64,000 nucleotides of DNA from positions 1 to 64,000 of the forward strand of contig CALSSJ010000044.1 of assembly GCA_943788985.1 (NCBI GenBank). Direction: 5' to 3'. This DNA is from an uncultured Lentisphaerales bacterium (GTDB lineage Bacteria > Verrucomicrobiota > Lentisphaeria > JABSQK01 > UBA12247). A model generated the notes under the pieces. That model was not told the DNA's origin and ran no database searches. It saw nothing but the letters and a program-made list of their open reading frames with translations. The translations under genes were made by a program, and so were the position numbers. This document shows, piece by piece, positions 1,092 to 57,909 of this stretch. Each line of letters begins with the position of its first letter. The stretch's first letter is position 1.

Positions 1092-3554
1092 TGTCTTTTT
1101 GCGGCCTTGATCGCGGCGCGTATCTGCTGGTGAGGCGGGAGCCAACATCTGGCTGCGAGCGCTTTCAGGCTTGCTTCCGGAACCACGCCAGCCAGTCGGC
1201 TGCTGGGTAGCGTGCTAAATGCCTTCCCAGCGGCAATGCCATATTCCTCCAGCACGATCCCCAGTGAGACATTCCTGGACAGGAATACCTGCGGATGCAG
1301 CATGCACTGCGCTTCCGGTGGGGTGGTAACCGACTCGCCCGCGAGCGTCTGCAGGGCCGCAGCATCCGTTTGCAGCAGGTACGTTGCGGGCTTCTCTAGC
1401 CACACTACCTGACAGTGCCGCTCCAGAACCGCGGCCACAAGGTCTGTCCGATCATCCCCCGAAAGCTCGGGAAATCGGTCGTCTATCTGGTCGAAGCAAT
1501 CCTCTGGCACCTCGCAATCAAACAGGTCAACTGCCGTCACCACGCGCTTCCAAAATGCGAAGTCCGCAATCGAGAACCCGCCGGTCATGAACTGCGGCAG
1601 CAAAGGATCATCGGCCAAGATGTAATGCAGAACAGGATCGACCCGCTGCAGATCCTGCCCCTCGCAGAGTTGTCGCGCCGCCGTCAACGCCCCCGCGATA
1701 TCTCCCGCTCGTACCGCGACCAACCAAGCCTGCGCCAGCTGCTCGCCCACATAGTGGCTTGCGGCGGTATTAAGGACGGCCTTGCGATACTCCGCCATCA
1801 CGGCAGGAAGCTCCGCCGTTCGCCCGCCAATCGCGAGCGCGGTGTAGTAATCCAACAACGGTCGCGGCTGCCCGGGGTAGAGCCAACAATCCACTGCAAA
1901 ATACTTCGTCGCCTGCGCATGCTCACCCAGCGAGCCAAGTGTCCTGCCCAATAGGGCATTGACGTGGGCGAAGTGTGGCTCGTGCTCGACCACGTGCACG
2001 AAGTGCGGCAGCGCCCGGTGCGAATCTCGCAAGCGTTCCAGGCAGACGATCCCGGCATAAAGGTGCGGCTCCAGCGCACTGTCATCGATCTTGGCTGCAG
2101 CCTCGTAGCGATCTGCCAGCTCAGGGAAAAGTTTGGGGTTTTGCACACAGCGCATTTCAAAGATCTGCGCATCCCGCAGCAGCCAGCTAAGCCGCACGCT
2201 TTTGTAGAGCTGGCTGGTCCCGCCCCAATACACTGCCAACATGGCCACCGAGTACAACGCACGACGCACGTGTTCCGCCTGACGGCCGTCCACCCTGCCC
2301 TCACGGATCCAAGGCGCCCAGACCAATCCGAGGCAGATCCAGGCCAATATATCCGTCGGTGCGCGCACCAAGACCATGTCGAGGTGCCCGTGTGCATAGA
2401 GTACAAATGCGGAGATCGCAGCGATCCGCCGAATCCCGCCGCTGAGTAGCGCTGGAATGATCGAGCCAATCAGGATCAGCCAGGCCAATCCCGCCGGCCA
2501 GCCGATCTGGGCCATGATGTGCAGCCACTCGTTGTGCGGATGCTCGGTGATCGGCGCGCTGACAGAACGTTGGTGGTAGGTAGACCGGCTTCGGTACGGC
2601 GCAAAGGCTTGGCGGAAGCGCCCGGCACCGGCTCCAAGCCAGCCGTGGCGGTCCGTCAGTTTGAGTGGTTCACTCCATCGCGAGAGGATCGCGTCGTGCG
2701 CCCCAATCATACGAAAAGTCGCGGCATACATCGGGATCCGCACATCGTGCTGCACCTGTCGCACCGCCCAGTCGATGTCGCGAACCAGCATCCTATCGAG
2801 GACCTTCCAGCTCACGCCAGCGGTAAGCGCTAGGAACCCAACGACCAGCGCCAGAGCGCGCCCTGCCTTCCCCTCTCGGCGCATGGCTAGGATCTTTTTC
2901 CCGCCAAAGAGAAGGGCCAGCAGGACAAGGACACAGAGGCCAGCGAGATTAGCTGCCCGCGAGTGGCAATAGTAGATCAAAAAGCCAGTGAGCGGCAGTG
3001 CGGTGACAGCCCATAACCACACACCACGCGTCCCGAAGCGCTGTTGTGCGGCATAGCAAGGCCACGGCAGCAAAGCGACCAGCAGCGCGGCCTCCCAGTT
3101 GCGATTTCCGCAAAGCGCCACAGGCGGGCGCCCCTGCAGCTGGGCAATCAAGCAGTAGGTCACCTCCAAGGCCCATAAAAGCACCAGAAACCGGACTACC
3201 GTTTTCTCGCTTGCCACGTCATAGCCAGTGTAGACGATCGCTACCGCCAGCGGGATCGCGACTTGCGCCAGCACTAGCGTGTATCCCGTCCATGGCCCTC
3301 CCCACGTTGCGAAGTTCGCAACCGCGCAGAGCCCAAATACAGCGAGACACCAGCCCATCCAGCGGGGGCAGCGAAAAGGGGCAGCGAACGATCACCGTCA
3401 GCGCAATCAGCCCCAGAATAAGTGCCGTCGGAACTCGCACCCCATACGGTTGATCGGCAGCACCGGGCGGCAACAGCGCAAATGGATAAGAAATCAGCAG
3501 CGCCAAGGCACAGCTGCGCAGAAACACCCGGGCCAGTTTAGACGCGCCTAGCAT
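1088..3554 (-). CDS. O-antigen ligase (Wzy_C)-family membrane protein with C-terminal TPR-like region; one frameshift near 3360
   Basis: Multi-TM N-terminus, GNRN, SRAA, G-x-G-x-F and HPHNEWL motifs; ORFs 3219-3554 and 1088-3358 join with a net +1 base. Confidence 0.75.
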
Positions 3555-3556
3555 CT

Positions 3557-4613
3557 CTACTGCATGACGCCGCAGCCAAGGCAGACGTCGTCCTGATAGA
3601 GAATCGCATACTGCCCCGCAGCGATCGCGCGCTCTCCGATCTCAAGGTGAACCCGCAGACAGCCTGGGTCCGGGCTTTTGCGAACTTCGCAAACCTGGCG
3701 TTCGGGACCGTGCCTGAGTTTGCAGGTCAGGCCGCTTCCCGGATCCGGCGGGTCATTAATCCAGTGCATGTCTGCGATGTCAAATTCATACCGTAGCTCA
3801 GGCTTCTCAGCTCTCTGCTTGGTCACGAATAGCGTATTTGCATCCATATCCTTGCGCGCCACGTACCAAGGCCCGCCACTCAACCCGAGTCCCTGGCGTT
3901 GGCCGATGGTGTGGAACCACAGCCCACGATGCCGCCCAAGAATGGCACCATCTGCCTGGTGTACAATCCGGCCCCGGCTTCTCGCCCAGGTAGGAGCGCA
4001 CGAAGTCACGGTAGCTGATCTTGCCAAGGAAACAGATTCCCTGACTGTCCTTGCGGTTCTTCGGCGGCAGGTTTGCGGACTCGGCAATCGCCCGGACTTG
4101 TGACTTTTGCAGGTCTCCGATCGGGAAGCAGGCCCGAGCAAGTTGGTCCTGGCGCAGCTTGGCCAGAAAGTAGGTTTGATCCTTGACGGGATCTGGCGCA
4201 CAGCACAGCTGACTGCGACCGTTATGGCGGTCAATCCGCGCATAGTGCCCGGTAGCTACCTGGCCAAAGCTGTCATCAATGGTGTCGTAGAAAGCCCCGA
4301 ACTTGACCAAGGCATTGCAGTGAATGTCCGGGCTTGGCGTGCGCCCCGCCTTGAGCTCAGCGATGGCGGCAGTGACGACTCGGTCGAAGTACTCGCGCTG
4401 CAGCGGAACCACCTCAAACGGAATATTCAGCTGGACGCAAATCTCACGCACGTAGCCTAAATCGGCATTCCAAGGACAGTCGCCGAGAAAGGCCAGATCA
4501 TCTTCCAACCAGATCTTTAGGTAGAACGCAGTAACGTCGTGGCCAGCGTCACAGAGCCGTTTGAGCGCAACTGCGCTATCTACGCCACCTGATAGCAGCA
4601 TTGCTGTCTTCAT
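3557..4613 (-). CDS. mnmA: tRNA 2-thiouridine(34) synthase MnmA; frameshift near 3965
   Basis: LSGGVDS, GRTPSPDIHCN, ATGHYA, KDQTYFL, DSQGICF, HTIGQRQGLG and GQYAILY motifs split across two frames. Confidence 0.93.
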
Positions 4614-4643
4614 ACTTTGGGCCAGCACAGATCCCCGATAGGA

Positions 4644-6444: not shown

Positions 6445-6448
6445 GACC

Positions 6449-10048: not shown

Positions 10049-10470
10049 CTTTTACTCTCCAGTCCACCGGTATAACCACCCAATCCTTGCGTAGCCACCA
10101 CACGATGACAAGGCACGATGATAGGCCATGGGTTGCTCGCCATCACGTTGCCGACTGCTCGCGCCCCGCGTGGGGATCCAGCATGCGCGGCGACCTCGCG
10201 GTACTCGAGAGTTTGCCCCGGTGGAATCGCACACACGACGCGCGAGACACGCTGTTGAAAATCCGTGCGCTTGCGGAGTTCGCAACTCGCCAACGAGATT
10301 GCGGCTCCGGTCTCAAAGTAGCGCGATAGTTGCGAGCAAACCTGGCGCACGCTCTCTGGTGCGTCTGGATCCCACGTATCGGGCCGGCCAAATCCGAGTC
10401 CCGTGACGCACCCGCTGGCGTCATATGACAAGGCTAGCGGGCCGACTGGTGATTCGCAGCAATAGATCAT
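10015..10470 (-). CDS. ogt: Methylated-DNA--protein-cysteine S-methyltransferase
   Basis: TDFQQRV, ARAVG, active-site PCHRVV, GGYTGG. Confidence 0.92.
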   Translation of the reverse strand: MIYCCESPVGPLALSYDASGCVTGLGFGRPDTWDPDAPESVRQVCSQLSRYFETGAAISLASCELRKRTDFQQRVSRVVCAIPPGQTLEYREVAAHAGSPRGARAVGNVMASNPWPIIVPCHRVVATQGLGGYTGGLESKRWLLAHEQSCS

Positions 10471-14654: not shown

Positions 14655-15737
14655 ATGAGCCAGGTTTATAATTTCAGCGCAGGCCCCGCCACGCTGCCGG
14701 CTGCGGTAATGCAGAAGGCTGCCGAAGAATTCACCGACTACCAGGGCCTCGGCTACGGTATCCTCGAAGCCAGCCACCGCAGCAAAGAGTTCACGGCTGT
14801 CATCGATGGTGCGGAGTCCGCAATTCGCGAACTGTTGAGCATTCCCGAAGACTATTCCGTTCTGTTTCTGCAGGGCGGCGCGAGCACCCAGTTTGCCATG
14901 ATCCCAATGAACTTGCTGGGCGAAGGGCAGACTGCGGACTACGTGGACACCGGTTCCTGGAGCCAGAAGGCAGCTAAGGAAGGCAAGCTACAGGGAAAAG
15001 CCAATGTCGTCGCGAGCAGCGGGCCGAACTACACGTCAATCCCCGATGCCGACAGCTGGAACTGCACGCCCGACGCTGCCTACCTGCATATCACCAGTAA
15101 CAATACCATCTACGGCACCCAGTTTGCCAGCTTCCCGACCGCGCCGGCTGGCGTCCCGCTCATCGCTGATATGTCCAGTGATATCTTGTCGCGCGATTTC
15201 GACGTCTCGAACTTTGGATTGATCTATGGTGGTGCCCAGAAAAATCTTGGCCCTTCGGGGGTGACGCTGGTGATCGCCAGGACAGACCTCATCAGCAGGG
15301 GCCCAGCAAATGTTCCCACGATGTTGCGGTATGACACCCATGTCGATAAGGCGTCGCTGTACAACACACCACCCACCTTCGCGATCTATATGGTCGGGCT
15401 AGTTGCACAGTGGGTTCAGAGCAGAGGCGGCCTGGCAGGCATCGAGGCGACCAACGCTGAAAAGGCTGCACTGATCTACGACTGCATTGACGCAGACGAC
15501 TTTTACCAAGGCCCGGCTGCCAAGGCCGACCGCTCCAAGATGAACGTCTGCTTCACGATCGGTGATGCCGAACGCGAGGGCACCTTCGTCAAGCAAGCTA
15601 GCGCGATCGGCTTGGTAGGGCTGAAAGGGCATCGCTCCGTGGGCGGCATGCGGGCAAGCATCTACAACGCGATGCCGATCGAAGGCGTCCGCAATCTGGT
15701 GGCGTTCATGCAAGAATTCCGCGCTCAGCACGGCTGA
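14655..15737 (+). CDS. serC: Phosphoserine aminotransferase
   Basis: YNFSAGPA, SHRS, LQGGAS, DMSS, GAQKN, GHRSVGG.RASIYN. Confidence 0.96.
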   Translation: MSQVYNFSAGPATLPAAVMQKAAEEFTDYQGLGYGILEASHRSKEFTAVIDGAESAIRELLSIPEDYSVLFLQGGASTQFAMIPMNLLGEGQTADYVDTGSWSQKAAKEGKLQGKANVVASSGPNYTSIPDADSWNCTPDAAYLHITSNNTIYGTQFASFPTAPAGVPLIADMSSDILSRDFDVSNFGLIYGGAQKNLGPSGVTLVIARTDLISRGPANVPTMLRYDTHVDKASLYNTPPTFAIYMVGLVAQWVQSRGGLAGIEATNAEKAALIYDCIDADDFYQGPAAKADRSKMNVCFTIGDAEREGTFVKQASAIGLVGLKGHRSVGGMRASIYNAMPIEGVRNLVAFMQEFRAQHG

Positions 15738-16589: not shown

Positions 16590-16591
16590 CA

Positions 16592-17239
16592 GTGGCCCGC
16601 ATTCGGCGCATGACCAAAGCCCAGATCGCAGAGTGCTTTGCGATCTTCGCAAAGACCATCGAGCCCAAATCTGAGCTGAAGTGGGAATCGCCGTTGGACC
16701 TGGTCATCGCCGTTCTGCTGTCTGCCCAAGCCACGGATATCGGCGTAAACAAGGCGACGCGACCATTATTCGCACGCTGTCGCAGCTGTGAGGACTATCT
16801 GGAGCTGGGCGAGGAAGGCGTACGCGAGGCGATCAAGACCATCGGCCTGTTCCGCAACAAGGCCAAGCACGTGATCGGGCTTTGCCACTTGCTCCTGAAT
16901 GAACATGGCGGCGAAGTCCCTTCGGACCGCGAGGCGCTCGAGCGCCTCCCCGGCGTAGGTCGCAAGACCGCTAACGTGGTGCTGAACGTGTGCTTCAACC
17001 AAGCCACTCTCGCTGTCGACACGCACATCTTCCGGGTCGCCAACCGCATGGGTTTCTGCGACGAAAAAACACCGCTGGCGACAGAACAGGCGCTGCTCAA
17101 GAAGATCCCCCCGGAGCATCTCAAGCCCGCGCATCATTATCTCATTCTGCACGGGCGCTATACCTGCAAAGCGCGTAAGCCTATTTGCAGCGCCTGCACC
17201 GTGCGGGCCTGCTGCAATTACACAGACAAGATAGACTAA
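16592..17239 (+). CDS. nth: Endonuclease III
   Basis: LSAQATD, LPGVGRKTANVV, VDTH, C-x6-C-x2-C-x5-C Fe-S motif. Confidence 0.96.
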   Translation: MARIRRMTKAQIAECFAIFAKTIEPKSELKWESPLDLVIAVLLSAQATDIGVNKATRPLFARCRSCEDYLELGEEGVREAIKTIGLFRNKAKHVIGLCHLLLNEHGGEVPSDREALERLPGVGRKTANVVLNVCFNQATLAVDTHIFRVANRMGFCDEKTPLATEQALLKKIPPEHLKPAHHYLILHGRYTCKARKPICSACTVRACCNYTDKID

Positions 17240-17676
17240 TGTTTGCCCGGGTCGCTCGCGTCGCGACGGTACTTGCAGTGCTCGCGGCATACTTGCTCGC
17301 CTACCTTCCTGTAGTTTCGCCCACGTTCATCGCAGATTGCTTCCTCGCGCAAGCCCCCTCGAACGGCCGCTTTCTCTGCCAAGACCATAATTGCGGCTGT
17401 AAATCCGCGGTAGATTGCGCAACAAACTGCTGCTGCTTCCCCAAAGACTCTCGGCGGCGCACAGAATCCGCTCCCGCGCTTGCTGCTGGCAAATGTCACA
17501 GCGACGCCCCGGCCGGATCAGTCACAGCCGCCAATCCTATCAAACACGTTCCCAGCGCTGACAGCCCCTCATGGTTTGCGGAGTCCGCAACCCGGGGCCC
17601 CGTGCTGGCCTTCACCGCGGCATATTCCCCGCCAGATCCTGAGCACACCAGCCCGGTCCCCATTCACGAGTCCTGA
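17239..17676 (+). CDS. Cys-rich exported protein with Pro-rich tail (DUF2946/CutF-like architecture)
   Basis: N-terminal hydrophobic helix, CQDHNCGC..DCATNCCC, C-terminal SPPDPEHTSPVP. Confidence 0.55.
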   Translation: MFARVARVATVLAVLAAYLLAYLPVVSPTFIADCFLAQAPSNGRFLCQDHNCGCKSAVDCATNCCCFPKDSRRRTESAPALAAGKCHSDAPAGSVTAANPIKHVPSADSPSWFAESATRGPVLAFTAAYSPPDPEHTSPVPIHES

Positions 17677-20469: not shown

Positions 20470-21633
20470 TCAAGGTGCAATCAGCGCTGTTCGTTGCTGA
20501 ATGCAGTGGAGATGATCAAACCTTGCTTCCACTAAGGCCCTGGCCGCGAGCGCGCGCTGCCGAACTTCTTTCGCATCCTGAAGGATTTTCTCGATCGTCG
20601 CCACATATCCAGACGCGGTCCCGTCCACCGGCCAACCAGTCCGCTCGCTCAAAATCTGGCCGACTCCCCCGCAGATCGTGCCGACAACTGGCAGCCCAGA
20701 CGCCATGGCCTCGACCACGATGTTGGGAATACCCTCGGCATCACCGTTGCGGAGTTCGCAACTCGTGAGCAGTAACGCGCAACTGCGCTGGAGTTTACGC
20801 CGGATCTGATCCTGAGGCAGCACCCCGGGAAGCTCCAGCCACTCCCGCTTATCCGGCATCAGCGCCCCGGCCCCAGCCATACAGAGCGTAAAATCCACGC
20901 CGGTCTCCCGTAACGCGGCAACCGCCTCAACCGCCAACCATGGCTGCTTTTTCTCGACGAACCGTCCAGCCCAGAACAACCGCCTCGGAGCCGCGTCGAG
21001 GTCTGCCATGGGCCAAGCGTCCAGCGCCAATCCGTGCGGAATCACGTGAAGCCGCGGGTGAGAGAGACTGGCCGCAACATGCTCATTGCAGGCCAGAACC
21101 ACGGTGGCCGTATCGTACAGCGACGGAGGATACGGGCTAGTGAGCACATCTGCAGCATGCACACTCACCGACCAACTCAGCCCGGCGGCGTCGGCTGCGA
21201 AGTGCGCAAGCACAGCCGGCAATCCACCAAATGCGGCGTGGATGTGGCTCACGCCGCGCTCAGTTGCGAACTCCGCAAGTTTTTGAATCAGCGTGCCATG
21301 CCTGCGACGCGCTAGGGGAAGCCGCAGACTACCAGGCACAAGTCCGGCCCGTGAGCTCTGCGTGCCTGCTGTGGGCGGTCGGTCGTCCAAGTAATTGCAC
21401 GCACCGGACGCAGGGGCGCCCTGCCGGATTGCTACCAGTTCCAACGGCATTAAGGCACGCAGCGACTCTACTTCCTGGGCGATGAACGTCTCGCTCCAGG
21501 CGGGCCAAGTCCCTGTCAGATATGCAATTTTGCTCAGAATGCCCCAGCATACGATGTGATCGTGCCTCCGCTCCCTGCTACCGTACTGAGGCGCATCCCC
21601 GAATGCAATCCGCAGCGAACGACTGTCCGTCAC
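20470..21633 (-). CDS. Glycosyltransferase family 4 (true start probably near 21540)
   Basis: KIAYL...SETFI.QE, HIHA.F, GRFVEKK, EGIPNIVVEAMASG. Confidence 0.88.
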   Translation of the reverse strand: MTDSRSLRIAFGDAPQYGSRERRHDHIVCWGILSKIAYLTGTWPAWSETFIAQEVESLRALMPLELVAIRQGAPASGACNYLDDRPPTAGTQSSRAGLVPGSLRLPLARRRHGTLIQKLAEFATERGVSHIHAAFGGLPAVLAHFAADAAGLSWSVSVHAADVLTSPYPPSLYDTATVVLACNEHVAASLSHPRLHVIPHGLALDAWPMADLDAAPRRLFWAGRFVEKKQPWLAVEAVAALRETGVDFTLCMAGAGALMPDKREWLELPGVLPQDQIRRKLQRSCALLLTSCELRNGDAEGIPNIVVEAMASGLPVVGTICGGVGQILSERTGWPVDGTASGYVATIEKILQDAKEVRQRALAARALVEARFDHLHCIQQRTALIAP

Positions 21634-21707: not shown

Positions 21708-23435
21708 ATGGCTTTAACGGGAAGTCGCACCAGTTTCCCCTCGACAGAACAGGCGCGCGCTTCGCGTGCGGGAAACGTCGCCGCCCTTACTGGCGAGAGA
21801 CCTGCGCTGCAGACCTATGCGCTGGCTGCGGCTGCTGGACTATTGCTCGCCGCTGCGTTCCCCCCGTTGAAGCTTTGGCCGCTGGCCTTTGTCGCCCTAG
21901 TCCCGCTGCCCTTGCTGAGTCGCAGGCCTGGACGCAGCCCGTTTCTCGTGGGCTACTGCTTCGGCTTCACCTTTTGGCTCGCGGGCCTAGCGTTTCTACG
22001 AGAAGTGTCCTGGCTCGCTCCCATTGCCCTGGCCCCCATCATGGCCCTTTGCCAAGGCGCGTGGGTCAGTGCGGTCTGCTTGATCCTATCCTCCCTGGAA
22101 CGAAAACGCGGCGAGGATCTGGCCTCACTGCACCAGGCTCATGCCACCTACCCGGACGCATTGACCGCTGGGCGCCAAGGCTTGTTCGCTCTGTGCGGCG
22201 CGGCCTGCTGGCTCTTACTGGAGTGGGTACGCAGCTGGATTGCGACGGGCTTTCCTTGGAATCAGCTCGGCGGGGTGCTGTGGGAACAGCCCCGCCTGAT
22301 TCAATCCTGCAGCTACCTCGGGGTACACGGACTGAGCTTCGCGATCTGCGTGGTAAATCTCGCGCTATTTCTGCTGCTGCGGCGTACGCCCGCCGCCTTC
22401 TCCTGCACGCCTCCATCCTACGCCGTAATCGGCGGGGCGATTGCGATCTCCGCAACGATTCTACTCCTACCGGGATCGGCACCGCCGCCCTCCCATACCG
22501 ACCTAAAAGAGATTGCCCTCGTGCAGGGCAACCTACCACAGATTCGAAACTACGAGAACGATGAACTGGCGAACGCAATCCAGATCTATGAGAACCTAAC
22601 GCGCGAGTTGCTGCAGGCTCAGGATCCCCCGTCTTTGATCGTCTGGCCCGAGACGGCTATCCCGGCCCCATTGGTCTTCGACAACGACTGCCGCGCTGCA
22701 CTGGGCCGACTATTTGCCCTGAACACGGAGAGCTGGCTGTTGGCGGGCACCATCCACTACCGCTTCCCTCCTCCCGGCCTAAAAGCCCCCCCGGACATGA
22801 CTAATAGCGCCATCATCTTCACCCCGGACGGGCTCTTGGAGCAGGTCTATGATAAGATCAAGATCGTGCCATTTGGAGAGTTTACGCCATTCGAAGACCA
22901 GCTACCTTGGCTGGTGGAACTGATCGGCATGGGACGCAGTCTGTTGCCCGGCAGAGAATACACGCTGTTTGAGCACGAGGAGGCACGCTTTGGCGTGAAC
23001 ATCTGCTACGAGGACATCTTCCCGCAGGTCAGTGCGAACTTCGCAAAGCAAGGCGCAGAATTCCTAATGGTGATCACCAACGATGCCTGGTACGGCACGA
23101 CCAGCGGCCCCGAGCAACACCTGTCACACGCGGTATTTCGGGCCGTAGAAACAGGACTGCCGCTGCTGCGTAGCGGCAACAACAGTGACAGCTGCCTGAT
23201 TCTCCCGGACGGCACCGTCACAGAGCGCCTGATCCGAGATGGGCAGCGCTTTGTGCGTGGCACGCAACGCTATCAAGTGCCGCTGGTTCGCCGCGAGCAG
23301 CTCACTCACTACGTCCGCTACGGGCCGTGGTTCCTGCATGCCATGGCCTTTCTCGGTGGCCTGAGCATTGCCGTTTGCGCAGTTCGCAAGCTGTCTTCGA
23401 ACCTAACTCTCATTGAGCGAGTCGAAGCAGCCTAG
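21708..23435 (+). CDS. lnt: Apolipoprotein N-acyltransferase
   Basis: TGFPWN.LG, VQGN, VWPETA, K..IVPFGE, ICYE, TNDAW, RAVE. Confidence 0.94.
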   Translation: MALTGSRTSFPSTEQARASRAGNVAALTGERPALQTYALAAAAGLLLAAAFPPLKLWPLAFVALVPLPLLSRRPGRSPFLVGYCFGFTFWLAGLAFLREVSWLAPIALAPIMALCQGAWVSAVCLILSSLERKRGEDLASLHQAHATYPDALTAGRQGLFALCGAACWLLLEWVRSWIATGFPWNQLGGVLWEQPRLIQSCSYLGVHGLSFAICVVNLALFLLLRRTPAAFSCTPPSYAVIGGAIAISATILLLPGSAPPPSHTDLKEIALVQGNLPQIRNYENDELANAIQIYENLTRELLQAQDPPSLIVWPETAIPAPLVFDNDCRAALGRLFALNTESWLLAGTIHYRFPPPGLKAPPDMTNSAIIFTPDGLLEQVYDKIKIVPFGEFTPFEDQLPWLVELIGMGRSLLPGREYTLFEHEEARFGVNICYEDIFPQVSANFAKQGAEFLMVITNDAWYGTTSGPEQHLSHAVFRAVETGLPLLRSGNNSDSCLILPDGTVTERLIRDGQRFVRGTQRYQVPLVRREQLTHYVRYGPWFLHAMAFLGGLSIAVCAVRKLSSNLTLIERVEAA

Positions 23436-25194: not shown

Positions 25195-26346
25195 ATGTCA
25201 ATGACCAAGTTTCAGCAAGATGCCGAGGGCATGACGCTAGCGGTGGCTTGTGGTGGAACCGGCGGGCATTTCTTTCCGGGCCTAGCGATCGCGCGAGAGT
25301 TTAAGCGCAAGGGGGGGACAGCGATCCTTTTTGTCGGCGGTAGCCAACAGGACGCTCAGATCAAGCAGGCCGAGGAAGAGGCCCTGGAGGCCGTTCCTTC
25401 TCCGGTTGTGCGTCTACCGCGGTCCAAGCTGGGATTGCCCTTATTTGCTGTACGTCTGGCTTGGTGCGTGTTGCAGACCGCCCGCCTGCTGGGCAAGCAT
25501 GGCGTGGACTTGGGCATCGTCATGGGCAGCTATGCGTCTGCACCATTGGGACTGGCACTTCTGCTACGTGGCAAGCCACTGGCGGTACACGAGGGCAACG
25601 CCATTCTTGGCCGGGCGAATCGTCGGCTGGCGAAGTACGCAGCCCACACCATGCTCTCGCTTCCTATTCCAGAGTTGCTATGCGAGGACGATACGACCTT
25701 GGTAGGCATGCCCGTACGGACGGAGATCCTGGGGGCAGCAGATCACGAACTTGAAGACGAGGAGTCGCTGAGTCGCTACGAGGCGCTCGGGCTATCTCCA
25801 GACTTCCCGGTGGTTCTGGTATTTGGCGGCAGCCAGGGCGCGGAGGCGATTAACCAGGCCGTGCTGGGAGCAATCCCCAGGCTGGACTTCCCACCCCTGC
25901 AACTGGTGCACTTCACAGGAAAGGAGGATAATCGCGAGGAGCAGGAACTGTGTGAGAAACATGAGATCATGGCCCAAATCGCAGCGCGAACGGACCAGAT
26001 GGGTGCGTATCTGGCAGTGGCAGATTTGGTCGTATCTCGGGCTGGCGGATCGACAGTTGCCGAGCTCGCGGTTACTGGACGGCCATCCATCCTAATTCCC
26101 TATCCGCACGCGACGGATGCACACCAGGCCCTGAACGCGGAGGTTGTCGCGCGTGCCAAAGGCGGGCATGTGATTGCCGAAGCGGACCTGACCTCCGACG
26201 CCCTGCGCGAGGCGATCACCGCCGCGCTCACCGACCCTGAGTTGCGGAGATCGCAACGCGAGGGTATTCTGACCTTGGCACATCCCCGTGCGGCCGAGGA
26301 CATCGTAAGCTTGCTGATTTACGAGCAACGCAAGACCTCGAACTAG
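25195..26346 (+). CDS. murG: Lipid II GlcNAc transferase
   Basis: GGTGGH.FP, HEGNA..GRANR, GGSQGA, SRAGGST..EL, IPYP...HQ..NA. Confidence 0.93.
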   Translation: MSMTKFQQDAEGMTLAVACGGTGGHFFPGLAIAREFKRKGGTAILFVGGSQQDAQIKQAEEEALEAVPSPVVRLPRSKLGLPLFAVRLAWCVLQTARLLGKHGVDLGIVMGSYASAPLGLALLLRGKPLAVHEGNAILGRANRRLAKYAAHTMLSLPIPELLCEDDTTLVGMPVRTEILGAADHELEDEESLSRYEALGLSPDFPVVLVFGGSQGAEAINQAVLGAIPRLDFPPLQLVHFTGKEDNREEQELCEKHEIMAQIAARTDQMGAYLAVADLVVSRAGGSTVAELAVTGRPSILIPYPHATDAHQALNAEVVARAKGGHVIAEADLTSDALREAITAALTDPELRRSQREGILTLAHPRAAEDIVSLLIYEQRKTSN

Positions 26347-27397: not shown

Positions 27398-27987
27398 CCT
27401 TTTCTAAAGTATGCCTCCTTGGCCTTGCCCTTTTCGCCGTGCTGTTCATTATTTTCGGACTCACCTTGCCCAGGGAGTACTCCGTGGAGCGAGAGATAAC
27501 CGTCACTGCGCCCAAACATACAGTGCAGGACTTGGTAAGCGATCTGGCCCGTTGGCCGGAGTGGACCCCATGGCAGGAGGCAGACCCGACGTTGAAGGTG
27601 ACCACCAGTGAACAGACCCGGGGCGTAGGCGCAACCCAGAGCTGGAAGGGCGAGAAAGGTGCGGGTCGGCTTGAGATCACGGCAGACAATGATGACGGCA
27701 TCGCCTATGAAACGTGGTTTGACAATGGAAAACTTGCTTGCAAGTCCACTATTTCTTACAAGGTTGCGGACTCCGCAACCGTGGTGATCTGGCGATTGCA
27801 CGGTGTGTCGGACCTCCCGGTCGTGGGTGGCTACCTCTCGGCAGCCGTGGACGGGATGGTCGGGCCGATGTTTGAGCACGGCCTTGGCAAACTCAAGGCA
27901 TTGGCCGAGGAGCCAACCGCCGGCCCCGCTGCGGCTGGAGAGACCGCTGCCCCGGAGCCCGCTGCCAGCGAGAACAACAGTCCATGA
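27394..27987 (+). CDS. SRPBCC/polyketide-cyclase family protein
   Basis: TM anchor, VEREITV.AP, W.EWTPW...DP, GVGA.QSW.G, GL.KLK. Confidence 0.85.
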
Positions 27988-36200: not shown

Positions 36201-39200
36201 AGGCATCGAGCCAGACCTCACGCAGGATCGAGCCGGCGTTCGGCCCTAACGGCTCACGAACCAGCACGTCGATCTCGTCTGCGGCTGCATTCATGCCGTC
36301 TGTTGCGAACAGCATCAGGGTGTACGTGCCAGGCTCACTGAATGTCGCCGACGTAGCAGGATAGGCAGGATCCGAGAAGGTCACGCTGCCCGGGCCGGCG
36401 GCCTTGCTCCACAGATAGGTCAAGCTCTCTGGTCCCGTCCACCATGTCGTACACCGTCCCGAGAAAATCAAGCTGGTTGCGAGGCCAGTACGTGTCCTGA
36501 TCTTCACCGGCGATCACCAGAATGTCTTCATTGCGCGTTTGAACAGCGGCGAAAGGCTCGAGAAAAGATGCCTGGATGACTTCGCGTTCAAAAAGCGCCG
36601 GCCCTTCCCATTGCACGGCAAAGTGATCGTGTCCGGCTGTTTCTCTGTGGAGGAGCTCGATGTAGTAGCGCTGCCCGGCCTGCAAGGTGACCGGCTCTGA
36701 CTCCTGAGCGGCCGTGCGAATCTGCCGCACGCTGTTCCAATCATCCGTAAAGGCAACCACCGCAGTGTCAGCGGCAGAATCTGTGACGCTCAGTAACAGA
36801 GTCGCCTCACGATCGCCGGACACGTAAAAGGTGTACTCGCCGGTGGCCGGCGGATGCAGGTAGCCTCGCACACGCGTGCCGTAGTGGTAGCCCCCAATGA
36901 CTCGGCCCCTCAAAGGTACTGAGGTGGTCACTGAACGTTGGCGAATCAGGATAGCGCTCGTCTTCTCTACCAAGTCCTCAACCGAGCCACCACGTACGTC
37001 CAGCCATACCTCGCGCAGAATGCCACCGACAGCCTGATTCAGCGGCTCAAGCACGGTCACCATGACCGTGTCACGGTGACTGGCAGCATCACAGGTCACT
37101 GTCAGCTCCAGTTCATAAACACCGGGCGCCTGCAAGGTCAACGTGGTCTCGGGATCGCTTGCAGCCAGAAAACCGGCCCCCGCAGGGCCACTCAGCTGCC
37201 GCCACCGGACTGCTGGCTCTCCATCTTGGCCACGTCGAAACTGGATTCTGCCAGCCAGCGCCAACTCACTACGTGGGAAATAGATCTCGCGATCTGGTCC
37301 GGCGTCTGCGAAGACCTTAATTGCCTCGTCGACAGGCGCGGCGTCCTCTCTACTCCACGGAGAAAGCATACTACCGGGAACAATAGACAGTGCTGGCGAC
37401 CATGGCGTGGACCAGGCAACGGCCACATGATCACCACCCCAGCCCTCTTTGTGCAGGACTTCGACATAATACCGCTCACCAGCCTCCAATTCCACCCAGA
37501 TAGAAAGTTGCTCTTCGTACCGATCCCAATCTTCGGGAGACGTCGCCCCCGGGACCTGCGCGATCAATGTTGCCGTCGCGGGATCGTCGCCAGCCCCCAG
37601 CAGCAGTTGACACTCGTCATCCCCCGAAATCGCAAACCTATACTGCCCGCTCACGGGGGCATGCAGATAGCCACGAATCCGCGTCCCGTAGCCGTCGCTC
37701 CAATGAACCGGCGTCGCCAAGCGTGGAAGCAGATCACGAAAATATGGATTGTCCGGGTAATTCTCGTGATTCAGCAGTAGCTGTACCTCGTTGTACCAGA
37801 CATCAGTCCACACCTCGCGTAGAATTGAACCGGTATTTGGTGCCAGTGCGCGGTGCAAACGAACGATGACCTCATCGCTATGCACCACCGCACCTTCGAT
37901 GCTGGCATCCAGGCGGATTACGTATTCGCCCTCAGCCGGGAGCGTCAGTGCGGTAGTCTCTCCTGTTTGATCGGCGATCGCTGCCTGAGTCGGCCCATCA
38001 ATCTGCGTCCACCGAAAGGTCACCAGTTCTGGCTCCACGCTCATGGCGAAGACCTGCGCGGTGAGCGTCGTCTCCTGCTGCGGGCAGTACACCTCCTGAT
38101 CATCACCGGCATATGCCACAGCGACCGGCAATGCCGTGGCGCGCGGCGCGTCCAAATAGGGCATCAAAAACACGGAATCAATCACCTGGCGTTCGATGTC
38201 CGGCCCTTGCCAGCCGACCGTCAGATAGTCGTGTCCACCGCCGTCCTTGTGAATTGCCCGAATTAGGTAACTCCGACCGGCCTCAAGCTCGATCTCGGCG
38301 GAAGCCTGCGAGTCCCGATAGTCCCAATTCCGGTAGCTGGTCCAGATATTCAGGTGGGCGATCTGCGTCAGACCAGCAGCGTCTTCGCTGTCGCTGAGAA
38401 ACAGCGCACTATGGTCGTCGCTAGCGATGAAGAAGCGGTAGGTGCCAGTTGTTGGCGGCACCAGCAGCGCAGTCAATTGCTGCCCGTAGTTATCGGCCCA
38501 AGGCTCTGGAGTCTCGAACGACTCAAGCGTGTCCACCACCATCGGCGCTTGGAGATACGCCTCGCTCGAAAGCAAGTTATCCACCCCGCCGCCGGAAACT
38601 CCCAGCCACACTTCACGAGTCACGCCCGTCACGCCCTCAATCAGACTCTGCCGGAGAGCAATTTCCACGTTGTCCACCGCCAGGTTGTAGCCGTCCACTG
38701 CCGTGACCTGAAATTCATACACTCCAGCGGCTGGCAAGGCCACCGTCGTCTCAAGCGCGCTAGGGTCTGCGATGTTCGCAACGCCCAGCCCCGACACTTG
38801 CCGCCACTCCACCTCGACTTCGGCATCCCAACGACGCTTAAAATAGTCTGCCTTCAGCCTGAATGTCTGCCGCGGCAGATAGCCGCTGCTATCCGGCCCG
38901 GCTCCAACCGCGAGTTCTACGCGGGGCAACAGCAGGGGCGCTGGCTGAACTGGTGACAAGTGTGTGCCCCCAATAGCCTGGCGTTCAAACACCCCTTCCA
39001 GTTCCCAGGCCACGGACAAACTGTCTCCGCCGCCAGCTTCCTTTTGCAGCCCTTCGATGTAGTACACTTGGCCAGCCTCCAGGTGGACTGCCACGGAGCG
39101 CTGTTCCTGAAATTTATCCCACTCCAGCGCCGCGGTCCAATCGCTCACAGTGGCGATTAGCACGGCTCCGCTAGGGTGCTCCGAATCAGAAAGATAAAGG

Positions 39201-40198
39201 GCACACTGGTCATCGCCAGAGACCCAGAACACGTAGTCGCCTGTGACCGGAGGATGAAGATAGCCATGGACACGCGCTCCATAGCCCCAGCCCCAATTCA
39301 CTGGGGTTGCGAAGCTGGTGAGCGCATCGCTAAAAGTCGGATTGTCCGGGTAGGTCGCGTGCTGCACCAGGTCAACAAGCCGCTTCCCCCAGATCCCTGT
39401 CCAGACTTCGCGGGTCACGGTTCCGCGCTCAAGCGCATTCGTGCCAGTTATGTGGGCTGCGTAGTCCGCAATGTTGGACATCCCGTCAAAATTCACGTCC
39501 CGCTCTCTGTCATGGGAGCCCGGATCGAGTCCCTTAGCCAGCTCGTAGGCGTCATGCATGCCGTCACTGTCCGCGTCATCAAACATCGGATTTTTGCCCG
39601 TAACATACAACTCGTCGACACAAACCGGCCCGGCAAACGTCAGCTCACGAAGGCTCTGCGCGGCGCCGCTCAACGGCAGATCTGCGGCGAGCAGCCGTTT
39701 GTTGCCATACAAATCCCAGCGTTCCCGCAAAAAATCGATGCGGGCCGTAATCCGCAGCCAAATCTTCGAATGCCCGGCCGCGTCCACCGGAATCCGGCAC
39801 TCCGTCAGCAGCCACGCGCTGTTCGCCCAAACCGCCACCACGCCAGCATCTGCACCGTCTGCCACGAAACCGATCGCCGCGGTGTCCGCAATCAAGAACG
39901 GCGTTTCCGCCACGCCGGGCCGGTAGTAGGCATCCACAAACACCGTCGCGGACTCATTCTCGCGAAAGGGAATTGTCGCCTCACCACTAGCCTCAACCAC
40001 CAGGCTCTGACTGTGCTTCGCCTGATCGGCTGAGGTGATGGACACCCCACCCGCAACCGTCCAGCCTAGCTCCGTCAGGTCACTGTCGACCGCGTAGTTC
40101 TCCCACGTTTCGAACCGGACTCGCTCCGGTATCTTGTTCTGCGCCTCGGCATAGAAGGCGGCAAAAGTCATGGCCAGTAGTAATATCCTTGCTGTCAC
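33204..40198 (-). CDS. Giant exported protein: six PA14 domains with PKD-like linkers fused to C-terminal DUF1800; multiple frameshifts
   Basis: Six (R/H)EVW-initiated PA14 units with GDD/SDD and KEG.G.D motifs; DADSDGM Ca-binding loop; ARFLNQATFG, DQLRQRVAFALSEI, PDENYARE, LVTSNPS, SVFNFF, SPEY. Confidence 0.82.
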
Positions 40199-48710: not shown

Positions 48711-49448
48711 TCACGCACATGGGTCTCGTAAGATCCGTACGAGGAGACGCGCGAAAAGTTGCGGTTGTTCCAAGTGCACGTTATGTCCCGCCTGTCCTAC
48801 TATCGCTGCCCGGACGCCCGCATGCGCCATCTCCAAGCTCTTTGCAATCTCTGCATACCGCGGATCCAGCGCGCCAGCAATCCACCACACCGGGCACCCT
48901 AAAAGCCCCAGATCCTGCTGCAAATCCCCCTGCCCGCCCAGACTGAATGCCCGTAGCGCGCGGGACAGTTCCTGCGCATTCCCCGTCGCCCTGCGCTGCA
49001 CCAAGTCAGCTCGCTGCACCACCACGCTCGCAAACAAATCCTGACCGTACCATTTTTGCAAGAACACATGTAACCCAAATTCGACCAATTCATCTGCCAG
49101 TGTCCGATCCGCCGCCAAACGCTCGGCGCGAACTGCGGGGTCCGCAATTCCAGGATTTGCGGACTCCGCAATCAGGCAGCGAAGGCCCTGTCCATCGTGA
49201 ACCGCCCAATCCAGCGCCAACCGACCGCCTAGCGAATAGCCCAGCACTGCGAATTCGGCGAGCCCCAGCGCCGCCACTGTCTCCGCGAACGCCGCGCGAA
49301 ACCAGGAAATCGAAGCATCTGCGGGGCAACTTGTCTGGCCATGTCCTGGCACAGTCAGGCAATAGGCATTCAATTCCGGCAGATCCCTGAGCAGCCGATC
49401 CCACTCTCCAGCGTCCCCCAGAAAGCCATGAACCAACAGCACCGGCAA
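48711..49448 (-). CDS. menH: SHCHC synthase (alpha/beta hydrolase)
   Basis: HGFLG, GYSLGGRLAL, ESANPG, R..R...D, AGHNVHLE. Confidence 0.85.
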   Translation of the reverse strand: MPVLLVHGFLGDAGEWDRLLRDLPELNAYCLTVPGHGQTSCPADASISWFRAAFAETVAALGLAEFAVLGYSLGGRLALDWAVHDGQGLRCLIAESANPGIADPAVRAERLAADRTLADELVEFGLHVFLQKWYGQDLFASVVVQRADLVQRRATGNAQELSRALRAFSLGGQGDLQQDLGLLGCPVWWIAGALDPRYAEIAKSLEMAHAGVRAAIVGQAGHNVHLEQPQLFARLLVRILRDPCA

Positions 49449-51860: not shown

Positions 51861-52292
51861 TCAGGCTAGGGACTCGCCCGTCAGCGTCACGACAATCCGA
51901 CGGCCGCCACCGCGAATGCGATGTTCGCACAAGTAAATGCCTTGCCAGGTCCCCAGCTGAAGCTTGCCGTTCCGAATCGGGATCGTCACCGACGGCCCCA
52001 GCAGAGATGCCTTGATATGAGCCGGCATGTCATCCGGCCCCTCATACCTATGCACAAAAAACGGCGTATCATCCGCCACAGCATGCCTAAAATATCGCTC
52101 GAAATCAGCGCGCACCGTCGGATCTGCATTCTCATTCAACGTCAACGCAGCCGAAGTATGCTGGATAAAGACATGCGCCAGCCCAATTGCGAACTCCGCA
52201 ATCTCCGGCACTTGACAGATCAGCTCGTCCGTCACCAGGTGAAACCCGCGGTCGCGACTCCGCAGCACGATCTGCCGTTGTGCCCAGCCCAT
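51861..52292 (-). CDS. yjbQ: YjbQ (UPF0047) family protein
   Basis: HTSA.LTLNENADP.VR, DDMPAHIK, LGTWQGIYLCEHR. Confidence 0.93.
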   Translation of the reverse strand: MGWAQRQIVLRSRDRGFHLVTDELICQVPEIAEFAIGLAHVFIQHTSAALTLNENADPTVRADFERYFRHAVADDTPFFVHRYEGPDDMPAHIKASLLGPSVTIPIRNGKLQLGTWQGIYLCEHRIRGGGRRIVVTLTGESLA

Positions 52293-53426: not shown

Positions 53427-53636
53427 GCGCCCCTCGCCTGTGGTGAACCGCGCACAACCGGCGCGCGTCGTAGTTTGCGAAGTTCGCGACCGAATGCAAA
53501 GCAAAACCGACAACCCCGACCGCGCGAGTGCAGTCTCCGCCGAACTGAACCGCAAACCCCCTCGCGGTCTTGCATTGACCACGAACAGGCCGTATTTGTA
53601 AAAGCTGTATAACTCCCTTTGAAAAGGATCCGGATT

Positions 53637-54767: not shown

Positions 54768-55445
54768 GTCTGCAGGCTCTCCAGGACCAAGTCGTTGCCT
54801 GCCGCAAATGCCCGCGGCTCATCGCCTGGTGCGAACATGTCGCTAGCCACAAGCGCGCTGCCTACCGCCGACGACGACTACTGGGGTGGCCCTGTCCCCG
54901 GCTTCGGCGATTTAGCAGCCCGCGTCCTCATCGTCGGCCTCGCCCCTGGTGCCCACGGCGCCAACCGCACCGGCCGCATGTTCACCGGAGACCGCTCCGG
55001 CGACTGGCTCTACCGCTCCCTTCACCGTGCTGAGTTCGCAAACCAGCCACACTCCATCGATCGCAACGACGGACTCGTGCTCAGCGACGCCTTCATAACT
55101 GCTGGCGTGCGCTGCGCCCCGCCCGACAACAAGCCCACCACCGCGGAGCAAAACACCTGCCGCGCCTATCTGCAGCAAGAGCTCACCCTTATGCCCCAGC
55201 TTCGCGTCATCATCGCTCTTGGCGGGCTTGCCTGGAACAGCCTATTTCGAGCCCTTGCAGCCGTTGATCTTCACGACTCACCACGGCCCAAGTTTGGGCA
55301 CGGTGCCGAAGTCAGCGTTGGCCCCTATCTGGTCATTGGCTGCTATCATCCCAGCCAGCAAAACACCTTTACCGGTCGGCTTACCGAGCCTATGCTAGAC
55401 GCCGTTTTCCTTCGCGCCCGCGACATCATCCAGCCCCGCATTTGA
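54764..55445 (+). CDS. Uracil-DNA glycosylase family 5 (UdgB-like); frameshift near 54865
   Basis: CRKCPRL, PVPGFGD, GLAPGAHGANRTGRMFTGD, CAPPDNKP, YHPSQQNT. Confidence 0.92.
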
Positions 55446-56762: not shown

Positions 56763-57156
56763 ATCGACAACTCGCTTATCTCTCTAGAACTACGTTTCGC
56801 GCTAACCATGCGCCACTATGTAACCGCCCCGAGCCATGGCAAGCCTAGGTTGAGTGGCAGGGGCAGCCCCTTGCCCCTGCACTTCACTCGAGAAAACGGC
56901 TAGCCCCCCAACGGTATTACACCCAGTAGATCGCGCCGTACGCGACGAGCCAGATCCCCCAGCGAGCGCCAGATATGGTCTCGTCGCTCGTACGTCCGAT
57001 CCACGCGGCTCGCTGGTCCCGTCTTGAATCCTAGCCACCGCCACTAAACCAATCCCGAATTGACCAACTTCCAAAAACAGTTCAGCCGACGCTCCAGAAG
57101 ATCGGGAGGTTGATCACAACGAGAAATAGTTGCACCCGTTCGGTTTTACGCATCGC

Positions 57157-57909
57157 TCAAGTTCCGGGCAGCCAGCCGCGCCGGAGGGTCTCGTAGAGCA
57201 GAATGGTCGTAGCCTGGGCCACGTTTAGTGATTCCGCCTGCCCGGGCATCGGGATGGTCACGCGGGCTCCGGGCAGGTCGCCCACGCCATGCGCCTCGCC
57301 GCCAATCACCAGCGCACCACCGCGTGGGTCAAACGCGGCATCCATGCACCGGGCACCTTCGTGAGGATCGGTCAGCCAAAGGCGCCCATCGGGAAACCGA
57401 GTCTGCCATTCCGCCACGGATTGCAGCTTAAATAGGGTTAGTGAGAACTGCGCGCCCATTCCAGCGCGGATTGTCTTGGGCGAGTATGGATCGCAGGAGC
57501 CGTCAGTCACGCAGACACTGCGGAGTCCGCAAGCCCAGGCAGTGCGGAGGATAGTCCCCATATTTCCTGGGTCGCCGACACCATCAAGAATAAGCGTGTA
57601 GGGCTCTGGCGAGGGCAGCTCGCTGGCATAGGCGTAGCGCATCACTGCCAGAATTCCCTGGGCGTTCTGCGTCGTGCTGACGGTTGCAAATTCCGCAACA
57701 CTGCAGCGATGGATCCGCTCGGCGGAGATGCTGCGGGGGGCCTCAAAGCCCTCGGCCAAGACGACAAACTCAACCGCTTTGCCAGCGTGGATAAAGGCCT
57801 CTTCGCAGCAGCGTTGGCCTTCGACTAGGAACAGCCCTTCCTTGCGGCGGCTGCGGCGATCATGGAGGCGCCGGATTAGGGATCCTTGGCGGCGAGTAAG
57901 CGCATTCAT
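57157..57909 (-). CDS. TrmH/SpoU-family RNA methyltransferase
   Basis: F.VEG, DPGNMGTILRT, GGEAHG, IPMPG..ESLNVA. Confidence 0.92.
   Translation of the reverse strand: MNALTRRQGSLIRRLHDRRSRRKEGLFLVEGQRCCEEAFIHAGKAVEFVVLAEGFEAPRSISAERIHRCSVAEFATVSTTQNAQGILAVMRYAYASELPSPEPYTLILDGVGDPGNMGTILRTAWACGLRSVCVTDGSCDPYSPKTIRAGMGAQFSLTLFKLQSVAEWQTRFPDGRLWLTDPHEGARCMDAAFDPRGGALVIGGEAHGVGDLPGARVTIPMPGQAESLNVAQATTILLYETLRRGWLPGT

Follow-up and report, generated by a model that had tools for sequence, protein, structure and literature searches.

The DNA considered here, referred to as the window, is a stretch of 64,000 nucleotides at the start of contig CALSSJ010000044.1 in GenBank assembly GCA_943788985.1, which was obtained from an uncultured, marine bacterium of the Lentisphaerales; in our numbering it is G000:C44:1-64000, and the assembly, G000, comprises 4.58 Mb on 48 contigs, with a GC content of 58% and a completeness of 83.6%. 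The window carries mutually unrelated genes, among them those encoding Wzy_C, mnmA-type, class-V aminotransferase, HhH-GPD, GT1, Lnt, MurG, SRPBCC, PA14, alpha/beta hydrolase, UPF0047, GT4, UDG and SpoU proteins, and a palindromic word, TTGCG-RASTY-CGCAA (TTGCGRASTYCGCAA), recurs within them. Twelve perfect copies of this 15-mer are present, compared with none in 100 dinucleotide-preserving shuffles; with up to two mismatches allowed, the number rises to 31 (12 perfect, 12 one-mismatch and 7 two-mismatch) against 0.63 expected and a shuffle maximum of 3, and pairs of the arms, TGCG-N5-CGCA, number 34 against 3.4 expected. By crude gene calls, 28 of the 31 copies are located within genes, in all three frames, and the other three sit in open reading frames (ORFs) skipped by the gene caller. 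An earlier note, made from the letters of the window, had reported the 12 perfect copies, all of which were recovered at exactly the same coordinates, along with 12 one-mismatch and at least 7 two-mismatch copies, which the recount reproduced, and had placed nearly all of them inside unrelated genes, in agreement with these counts.

The word is not confined to the window. G000 contains 380 perfect 15-mers, 850 13-mers of the form TGCG-RASTY-CGCA and 1,007 11-mers of the form GCG-RASTY-CGC; arm pairs amount to 1,749, compared with 158 for a reversed-pattern control, and at least one is present on each of the 48 contigs, and the commonest 10-mers and 12-mers of the assembly are pieces of the word. 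The core that is strongly kept is the 13-mer, the outer T and A being present in about 60% of sites; the 15-base consensus proposed in the earlier note thus captured a real word but was slightly too narrow and too long. The same note had suggested a genome-wide count against codon-preserving shuffles, and the enrichment by this measure is strong: coding sequences hold 317 copies, compared with 0-4 (mean about 1.6) in 20 within-gene shuffles of synonymous codons that keep every protein, and with none in 20 shuffles of codon order.

Several lines of evidence show that the word is a property of the DNA itself rather than of peptides, transcripts or a mobile unit. A crude gene set, built by scoring ORFs for codon usage (3,177 genes, 82% of G000), places 729 of the 850 13-mers in genes, with 505 in the frame GCG-RAS-TYC-GCA (Ala-x-x-Ala) and 116 and 108 in the other two; both orientations on the coding strand are about equally common. 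The argument of the earlier note from three frames against a conserved peptide is upheld. Genes contain 3.8 sites per 10 kb and divergent, tandem and convergent spacers 2.4-3.2, no preference for promoters or terminators was seen in G000, and sites are spread evenly along gene length. Tetrapeptides of the pattern A[EDKN][SF]A are spelled exactly GCG-RAS-TYC-GCA in 532 of 858 cases, where codon usage predicts 9.5. Measured against amino acid frequencies, the peptides concerned are 2.1-5.9 times as common as expected, whereas reversed-order control peptides are at 0.56-1.3 times, and the DNA word has therefore changed proteins: it has entered native genes by point substitutions, some of them synonymous and others amino acid-changing. 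A chance, codon or peptide origin is ruled out by the shuffles and the codon counts at A[EDKN][SF]A. The orientation bias along the replication strand that marks a Chi-type recombination hotspot was not found: orientation is unrelated to local GC skew, with centres G:C at 172:163 under negative skew and 137:112 under positive skew. On the 18 G000 contigs that were profiled for it (at least 90 kb each), GC skew is weak and lacks a usable switch point.

The positions at which the word tolerates change point to the manner in which it might be read. The 827 one-mismatch 13-mers of G000 are distributed unequally by position. Few (11-18) affect a G or C of either arm, about 50-65 affect any other arm base, and two positions of the centre stand out with 187 and 213, mostly the symmetric A>T and T>A. 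In the numbering of the 15-mer, there are 133 cases of A7>T and 155 of T9>A, the same symmetric pair of variants that the earlier note had picked out in the window. Plain decay would give roughly even numbers, and so this profile, which resembles a binding-energy profile, argues for a protein-like readout. A hairpin or cruciform formed by the word in single-stranded DNA or RNA is, by comparison with duplex readout, very improbable. The 15-mer can form a stem of 5-6 bp and folds better than nearly all of 200 shuffles, only 1-3 of which fold equally well, but the fold is weak (-4.1 to -5.3 kcal/mol) and is weaker still for the commonest centre. The 13-mers with a central G carry G at position 6 in 78% of cases and T at position 10 in 63%, in spacers and genes alike, and the two positions vary independently: GAGTT, GAGTC, AAGTT and AAGTC number 424, 239, 109 and 78, compared with 416, 247, 117 and 70 under independence. 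Combinations that could pair across positions 6 and 10 are thus not enriched (348 observed, 365 expected), and the frequent non-complementarity of R and Y observed in the window holds genome-wide. In the arms, where both changes of 226 two-mismatch sites fall, 49 of these sites are changed at paired positions without an excess of compensatory doubles (26 compensatory, 13 of them one repeated sequence, and 23 not), and the two orientations relative to transcription are about equally frequent, which also speaks against a hairpin. Even less credit can be given to a miniature mobile element inserted in frame, of the kind of miniature inverted-repeat transposable elements, Rickettsia palindromic elements (RPEs) or repetitive extragenic palindromes. 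RPEs are palindromic and located inside genes, as is the word; however, its flanks hold no information beyond a weak K/M base beside the outer T and A on each side, all 14 of the relatives' sites that can be aligned to G000 align without gaps to homologous sequence devoid of the motif, homologous places within a genus differ by point changes only, and no length class exceeds 15 bases. The earlier preference for a dimeric protein on duplex DNA over a hairpin or a mobile repeat is accordingly borne out by the covariation, fold, flank and alignment comparisons.

The range of the word was delineated by comparing G000 with 40 relatives (41 genomes in all). The RASTY 13-mer is patchy among them, with 29-123 copies in family f3, 188 in f8, 291 in f12, 43-124 in genus g18 and 8-13 in genus g15, and 0-4 elsewhere. 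Arm pairs greatly exceed the control in family f9, genera g18 (898-1,442; control, 22-26) and g15 (812-959; control, 69-116), and are also in excess in f8 (299; control, 14), f12 (429; control, 90) and f3 (271-498; control, 76-148); in f9 genus g21 they number 19-20 (control, 8-20), and in the remaining families they stand at about the control level. Additional rich families in the class are f15 (793 vs 11 and 630 vs 31), f16 (1,112 vs 236) and f18 (206 vs 10). In a sample of 251 genomes, enrichment appeared only in one class, Lentisphaeria by record labels, and none of the 167 genomes from other classes of the phylum reached three times the control, so that the phylogenetic range, which the earlier note had proposed to examine, is patchy occurrence within a single class. 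Among the matches listed in named genomes, multiple copies of the exact 15-mer occur solely in records labelled Lentisphaeria, Lentisphaerae and Victivallales and in two labelled Verrucomicrobiota.

What is constant across these lineages is (T)TGCG and CGCA(A), two half-sites in inverted arrangement; the five-base centre that separates them is a lineage dialect: RASTY in G000, where GAGTT is preferred over GAGTC, GASTC in f12 (as seen in G032, GC 67%), and nearly free in g18 and g15. In G025 (g18, GC 40%) and G022 (g15, GC 63%), the outer T and A and the arms are kept, and RASTY accounts for 3 of 70 and 0 of 33 sites, respectively; the same arms with different centres are found in f1, f12 and the f9 genera g15 and g18. 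A decay index based on the ratio of perfect to one-mismatch copies was dropped: low ratios in f9 had initially been taken as decay, but f9 uses another centre, so the index is valid only for f3.

Comparison of homologous places revealed constraint in one genus and decay in another. In g18, where nucleotide identity is 77-80%, 28 sites were taken from G025 and looked up in G028 and G034, with the multi-copy loci resembling insertion sequences omitted (L360, L362, L364, L366, L368, L370-L372 and L376-L384). The arms survive unchanged at the corresponding position in 13 of the 26 and 13 of the 25 cases covered (26/51), compared with 14.4% and 13.9% of control windows of the same geometry (binomial p = 1.8e-5 and 7e-6, for two comparisons that share ancestry). 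Base by base, identity amounts to 0.855 for the arms, compared with 0.769 for the centre and 0.767 for the ten flanking bases on either side, which shows that the arms are held in place while the centre and flanks drift. In genus g3, however, where 58 kb were compared at 85-93% identity (high-scoring segment pairs below 78% identity and G008 loci omitted), the nine sites that are perfect in G005 match identically in 7 of 25 comparisons, against 24-38% for control 13-mers; every homologous place shows a remnant with 1-3 mismatches, none of the sites is perfect across the four genomes, and the ancestral sites are decaying at the control rate. Conservation in orthologues, which the earlier note had proposed to examine, is present in g18 and lacking in g3; for G000 itself, the genomes searched included no close relative. 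Between families, 14 of 40 sites from two f3 genomes have a tblastx match over the site in G000, and none of the 14 places carries the word, one of them being a two-mismatch near-site. Contigs from four metagenome runs, covering 18 kb, show 34 variable places, none of them within the 14 copies of the word there, although with only 0.4 expected there this comparison has no power.

The gene that reads or drives the word was sought by family-level presence tests of seven families across the 41 genomes, and none of them (ComEC, PilT, PilM, ParB_N, PF00145, PF01555 and PF02384) tracks the word. The ComEC domain is found in 39 of 41 genomes, PilT in all 41 and PilM in 38, the latter two including G000. 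ParB_N (PF02195) is found in 10 of 41 genomes but not in G000 or any word-rich relative by profile search, and the Lentisphaeria genomes without it may lack a canonical ParABS system. The co-occurrence of ParB or of competence genes with the word that the earlier note had proposed to look for is thus not borne out, the former being absent from the word-rich genomes and the latter near-universal in the class and unlinked to the word. The C5 methylase family PF00145 occurs in 21 of 41 genomes, 0 of 5 in f3 and 1 of 3 in g18; PF01555 in 31 of 41, with no match in G000 and 0 of 3 in g18; and PF02384 in 32 of 41, 0 of 5 in f3, and in the word-poor f7 (7/7) and g21 (2/2). At G000:C36:36244-38483, two tandem copies of a Type I-like N6-methylase (PF02384) are present only as pieces in different frames, one of which has an in-frame TGA stop. 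Members of f3 and f8 encode, beside the ordinary ComEC, a second, long paralogue of 1,054-1,214 amino acids with DUF4131 and Competence domains and a C-terminal third that has no Pfam match (L152:2387-5551 in G011, L153:2351-5995 in G005, G017:C192 and G013:C375); as a candidate driver it was dropped, being confined to f3 and f8 and missing from the other rich lineages.

Within G000, sites are distributed unevenly between native and apparently foreign DNA. Binned by 20 kb, site numbers show over-dispersion (variance/mean, 2.8), and they rise with GC content (r = 0.58). The interval G000:C12:1-80000 (L354-L357), with a GC content of 53-56%, has no copy of the word; it holds a one-strand cluster of genes for sulfatases, alpha-L-fucosidases, GH20, GH95, rhamnosidase and EEP-family proteins together with a DDE transposase, and is probably an island for degradation of sulfated fucans, its acquired status being suggested by this composition. 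Among viral contigs, 60 contain the exact 15-mer, 59 of them in a single copy, as chance would give, and only L317 is enriched. This contig is a phage head module (terminase, portal/minor head, protease, major head and neck genes; GC 60%) with five RASTY sites in 14.6 kb, located inside the terminase, portal, protease and major-head genes; at about 3.4 RASTY 13-mers per 10 kb, compared with about 1.9 in G000, it presumably belongs to a phage or prophage of word-rich Lentisphaeria.

Among known systems, the closest likenesses are to HIP1 (GCGATCGC) and the alternate palindromes of cyanobacteria and to the DNA uptake sequences (DUS) of Neisseriaceae and uptake signal sequences (USS) of Pasteurellaceae. 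HIP1 and its alternates, like the present word, are short palindromes that far exceed codon-aware expectation in genes and spacers and in all frames, and they reshape peptides, the Ala-x-x-Ala frame of this word echoing the Ala-Ile-Ala of HIP1. Both are lost in some lineages, and the function of HIP1 has been debated for 30 years; it is reportedly tied to the methylases DmtA and DmtC, a link said to have been drawn by Elhai in 2015. DUS and USS share with this word the character of a lineage-specific sequence of 9-15 bases that occurs in both orientations and all frames, alters proteins, differs in dialect between related lineages and is rare in foreign DNA, and the type IV pilus genes and ComEC are encoded in the class. 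In contrast to this word, DUS and USS are not palindromes, their density, like that of HIP1, is about one per kb, and they bias uptake in experiments, with ComP as the receptor of DUS; the present word is not evenly spaced and belongs to a genome in whose assembly ComEC was not found. HIP1 is described as subject to selection, periodic, conserved in position between related genomes, as this word is in g18, and possibly involved in nucleoid organization (Xu et al. 2018), as raising natural transformation, an effect that depends on methylation (Kamoku and Nielsen, bioRxiv 10.1101/2024.09.10.611283), and as co-distributed with so-called Type IV secretion system proteins, proposed to be an uptake sequence and containing the sites of two orphan methylases, DmtA and DmtC (Rodriguez-Cruz et al. 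2026, PMC13756078). The present word differs from HIP1 proper in sequence and phylum; it is bipartite, with arms of 4-5 bp around a 5-bp, lineage-variable centre, where HIP1 is a contiguous 8-mer; it is sparser, at one per 2.6-5 kb; and PF00145, PF01555 and PF02384 do not track it, in contrast to HIP1 with its sites for DmtA and DmtC.

The sites of dedicated chromosome organizers (matS for MatP, SlmA-binding sites, Noc-binding sites and parS for ParB) are also palindromes, of 12-16 bp, read by dimeric proteins and in part intragenic. They differ from the word in consensus and also in number and distribution, amounting to tens of sites that either lie within one chromosomal region or avoid it, and the 1,749 arm pairs on all 48 contigs of G000 do not fit such a role; this part of the earlier note's interpretation, which had included organizers of the parS, matS, Noc or SlmA kind, is not upheld, and the lack of ParB_N matches in G000 and its rich relatives points the same way. 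In the literature on iterated palindromes or uptake sequences in Lentisphaerae and Verrucomicrobia, supplements lying outside the search, no description of the word was found, as the earlier note's failure to match it to a known site had suggested; the matches that did emerge, one to a 13-mer and the rest to two 11-mers, were all in unrelated eukaryotic papers on cell biology, veterinary subjects or parasite expression. With HIP1 and DUS/USS as its nearest kin, the feature is less unprecedented than first held. The word is a real, strong and apparently undescribed member of the HIP1/DUS class, whose bipartite architecture and dialects by lineage appear to be new.

We consider it very probable that the copies constitute a recognition word for duplex DNA that is under constraint. 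The fuller statement, which joins to this a role in DNA uptake or recombination, is tentative and falls somewhat short of even odds; a system for recognizing self-DNA is nevertheless possible and is the reading closest to the known kinds, HIP1 and DUS/USS. From the comparisons above, we infer a mechanism and function along the following lines. The copies would form a genome-wide iterated word, constant in its arms and, in G000, constrained also in its centre (RASTY, with GAGTT the best), and a two-fold symmetric, presumably dimeric, sequence-specific protein would read the duplex by contacting the arms about one helical turn apart. The word would be maintained by selection or by biased replacement, its most likely role being that of an own-DNA tag of the HIP1/DUS type that favors uptake or recombination of DNA from the same lineage, and loss of the reader protein would leave the sites to decay. 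The view of the earlier note thus holds for a real word that is independent of frame and strand and is probably read as duplex, and fails for an organizer of the parS, matS, Noc or SlmA type.

A number of observations weigh against an uptake tag read by a symmetric dimer. The density of the word lies below that of DUS, USS and HIP1, and its spacing is not even, being random in G025 (coefficient of variation 1.06, compared with 0.98 +/- 0.11) and over-dispersed in G000 (1.38). The ComEC domain was not found in the G000 assembly, which is 83.6% complete; competence and pilus genes, near-universal in the class, do not track the word; and no reader protein was found among the families profiled. 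Because the g3 sites are no better kept than controls, any function must be dispensable there, and the conservation in g18 could equally stem from a chromosomal role. The five copies in the phage head module of L317 are not required by a role in uptake. Finally, GAGTT, the best centre in G000, lacks two-fold symmetry, and the base at position 6 varies with that in the centre, features that a strictly symmetric dimer does not explain.

Two other explanations accept a protein that acts on the duplex and place it elsewhere in cell biology. It is rather unlikely that the sites bind a chromosome-structuring or nucleoid-associated protein (an organizer, condensin-loading or occlusion-type factor) acting chromosome-wide, which was the foremost idea of the earlier note. 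Dimeric DNA-binding proteins typically recognize two arms of 4-5 bp one helical turn apart, the arms are positionally constrained in g18, sites occur on all contigs, and Xu et al. (2018) proposed a nucleoid role for HIP1; moreover, as ParB_N is confined to 10 of 41 genomes, none of them word-rich, another organizing system may exist. But ParB is lacking in word-poor families too, which removes any link, about 1,700 sites are far more than the tens of regional sites that organizers use, decay at the control rate in g3 would be odd for a core chromosomal function, and it is the contrast of native and foreign DNA, not any visible replication landmark, that density follows. Less probable still is that a DNA-modification or repair system left the word as its by-product or has it as its target, be that system an orphan methyltransferase with bipartite Type I or IIB-like specificity for TGCG-N5-CGCA or a biased mismatch correction that turns near-sites into sites. 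The arms-only dialects (4 + N5 + 4) do share the geometry of bipartite Type I/IIB targets, PF02384 is absent from all five genomes of f3, whose sites decay, and HIP1 is tied to DmtA and DmtC (PMC13756078). This explanation is nonetheless countered by the failure of PF00145, PF01555 and PF02384 to track the word, the last being present in G000 only as broken pieces, by the spacing of the methylatable adenines, which at 12 bases would be wider than in Type I sites, and by the abundance of one-mismatch neighbors, about 20-fold over the control (827 vs 37, at most one mismatch), which efficient conversion would deplete. 

The copies of the word in the window are compiled below, together with the arm pairs that have other centres.

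Table 1. Copies of the word and additional arm pairs in the window (positions in the 64,000-nucleotide stretch; strand of the host gene in brackets)
Feature	Position	Location or remark
Perfect 15-mer, centre AAGTT	3307..3321	Wzy_C-domain gene 1088-3358 (-)
Perfect 15-mer, centre AACTT	3678..3692	ORF 3557-4243 (-)
Perfect 15-mer, centre GAGTT	10271..10285	ORF 10015-10470 (-)
Perfect 15-mer, centre AACTC	10641..10655	gene 10467-11432 (-), no Pfam match
Perfect 15-mer, centre GAGTC	17576..17590	ORF 17185-17676 (+)
Perfect 15-mer, centre GAGTT	20747..20761	group-1 glycosyltransferase gene 20470-21633 (-)
Perfect 15-mer, centre AACTC	21264..21278	group-1 glycosyltransferase gene 20470-21633 (-)
Perfect 15-mer, centre GACTC	27764..27778	Polyketide_cyc2 (SRPBCC) gene 27394-27987 (+)
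Perfect 15-mer, centre AAGTC	41080..41094	gene 40320-41183 (+), no Pfam match
Perfect 15-mer, centre AAGTT	43052..43066	gene 42733-43257 (-), PNP_UDP_1 match
Perfect 15-mer, centre GACTC	49157..49171	alpha/beta hydrolase gene 48711-49448 (-)
Perfect 15-mer, centre AACTC	52187..52201	UPF0047 gene 51861-52331 (-)
One mismatch, perfect 13-mer	1555..1569	Wzy_C-domain gene
One mismatch, right arm broken	4073..4087	tRNA_Me_trans (mnmA-type) gene 3807-4628 (-)
One mismatch, perfect 13-mer	14809..14823	class-V aminotransferase gene 14655-15737 (+)
One mismatch, centre ATCTT	16638..16652	HhH-GPD (nth-type) gene 16466-17239 (+)
One mismatch, centre ATCTC	22441..22455	Lnt gene 21708-23435 (+)
One mismatch, perfect 13-mer	23032..23046	Lnt gene 21708-23435 (+)
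One mismatch, centre CAGTT	23375..23389	Lnt gene 21708-23435 (+)
One mismatch, centre GAGAT	26242..26256	MurG gene 25195-26346 (+)
One mismatch, perfect 13-mer	27102..27116	gene 26372-27397 (+), no Pfam match
One mismatch, perfect 13-mer	42907..42921	gene 42733-43257 (-)
One mismatch, right arm CGCG	53475..53489	Glycos_transf_4 gene 52292-54082 (-)
One mismatch, perfect 13-mer	57518..57532	SpoU methylase gene 57157-57999 (-)
Two mismatches, arms intact, centre ATTTC	3099..3113	Wzy_C-domain gene
Two mismatches, arms intact, centre AAGTG	21195..21209	glycosyltransferase gene
Two mismatches, arms intact, centre ATGTT	38767..38781	PA14/PKD gene 36335-40198 (-)
Two mismatches, arms intact, centre TAGTC	39457..39471	PA14/PKD gene 36335-40198 (-)
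Two mismatches, arms intact, centre GGGTC	49133..49147	24 bases from perfect copy at 49157
Two mismatches, left arm broken	55027..55041	UDG-family gene 54795-55445 (+)
Two mismatches, left arm TGCA	57684..57698	SpoU methylase gene 57157-57999 (-)
Arms only, TGCG-AATCT-CGCA	2019..2031	
Arms only, TGCG-CATCC-CGCA	2166..2178	
Arms only, TGCG-GAGAT-CGCA	2408..2420	
Arms only, TGCG-TGGCA-CGCA	23254..23266	may be a chance match (about 3.4 expected in window)
Arms only, TGCG-GGGAT-CGCA	27995..28007	
Arms only, TGCG-ACGAA-CGCA	28415..28427	may be a chance match
Arms only, TGCG-ATGTT-CGCA	51917..51929	UPF0047 gene

Some further features of the window and the assembly were recorded alongside. In the window, the mnmA-type gene appears split at 3557-4628 into two minus-strand ORFs that overlap in different frames (3557-4243 and 3807-4628), which may reflect a frameshift or an assembly error. 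At position 15990, just downstream of the aminotransferase gene, one base is missing in contigs from three of four metagenome runs, which is either a strain indel or an assembly error. Genes for tRNA-Asn(GTT) and tRNA-Pro(CGG) are located at 20179-20428, and these two genes account for a tenfold spike in depth (20201-20800) and many loose metagenome contig ends there. Elsewhere in G000, the segment G000:C10:299151-301906 is a tandem repeat with a unit of about 660 bp, each unit holding two copies of the word 60 bases apart, and the exact variant AGCGAAGTCCGCT, present 13 times, is probably part of a longer multi-copy sequence. The organism is a common member of marine and estuarine metagenomes: the window stretch or part of it was found in 20 runs from 11 studies, 18 of them with at least half of the sampled words, and the assembly itself may derive from one of the 20.

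HIP1, DUS and USS are among the few cases in which a process at the level of DNA overrides codon choice and even protein sequence, and the word described here adds an independent case in another lineage. Its bipartite structure, with constant arms and a lineage-specific centre, points to the manner of reading, and the presence of constrained, decaying and word-less lineages within one class provides a contrast for finding the responsible gene by phylogenetic profiling. In the genomes that carry it, the word is also a practical marker of native versus acquired DNA. Lentisphaeria might conceivably, although the odds are against the proposal in full, possess a hitherto undescribed DNA-reading system, in which a dimer on (T)TGCG-N5-CGCA(A), with a spacer preference that has diverged between families, would have thousands of sites in native genes, several hundred tetrapeptides would have been rewritten, and repeated loss would have left decaying fossil sites. 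If the word proves to mark own DNA so that it is taken up, recombined or protected, a second and independent instance of the HIP1 phenomenon would be at hand, in which the logic of recognition by arms versus centre and the history of gain and loss would be unusually easy to read; and if, more specifically, the mark serves uptake, the word would be a candidate handle for genetic tools in these bacteria.

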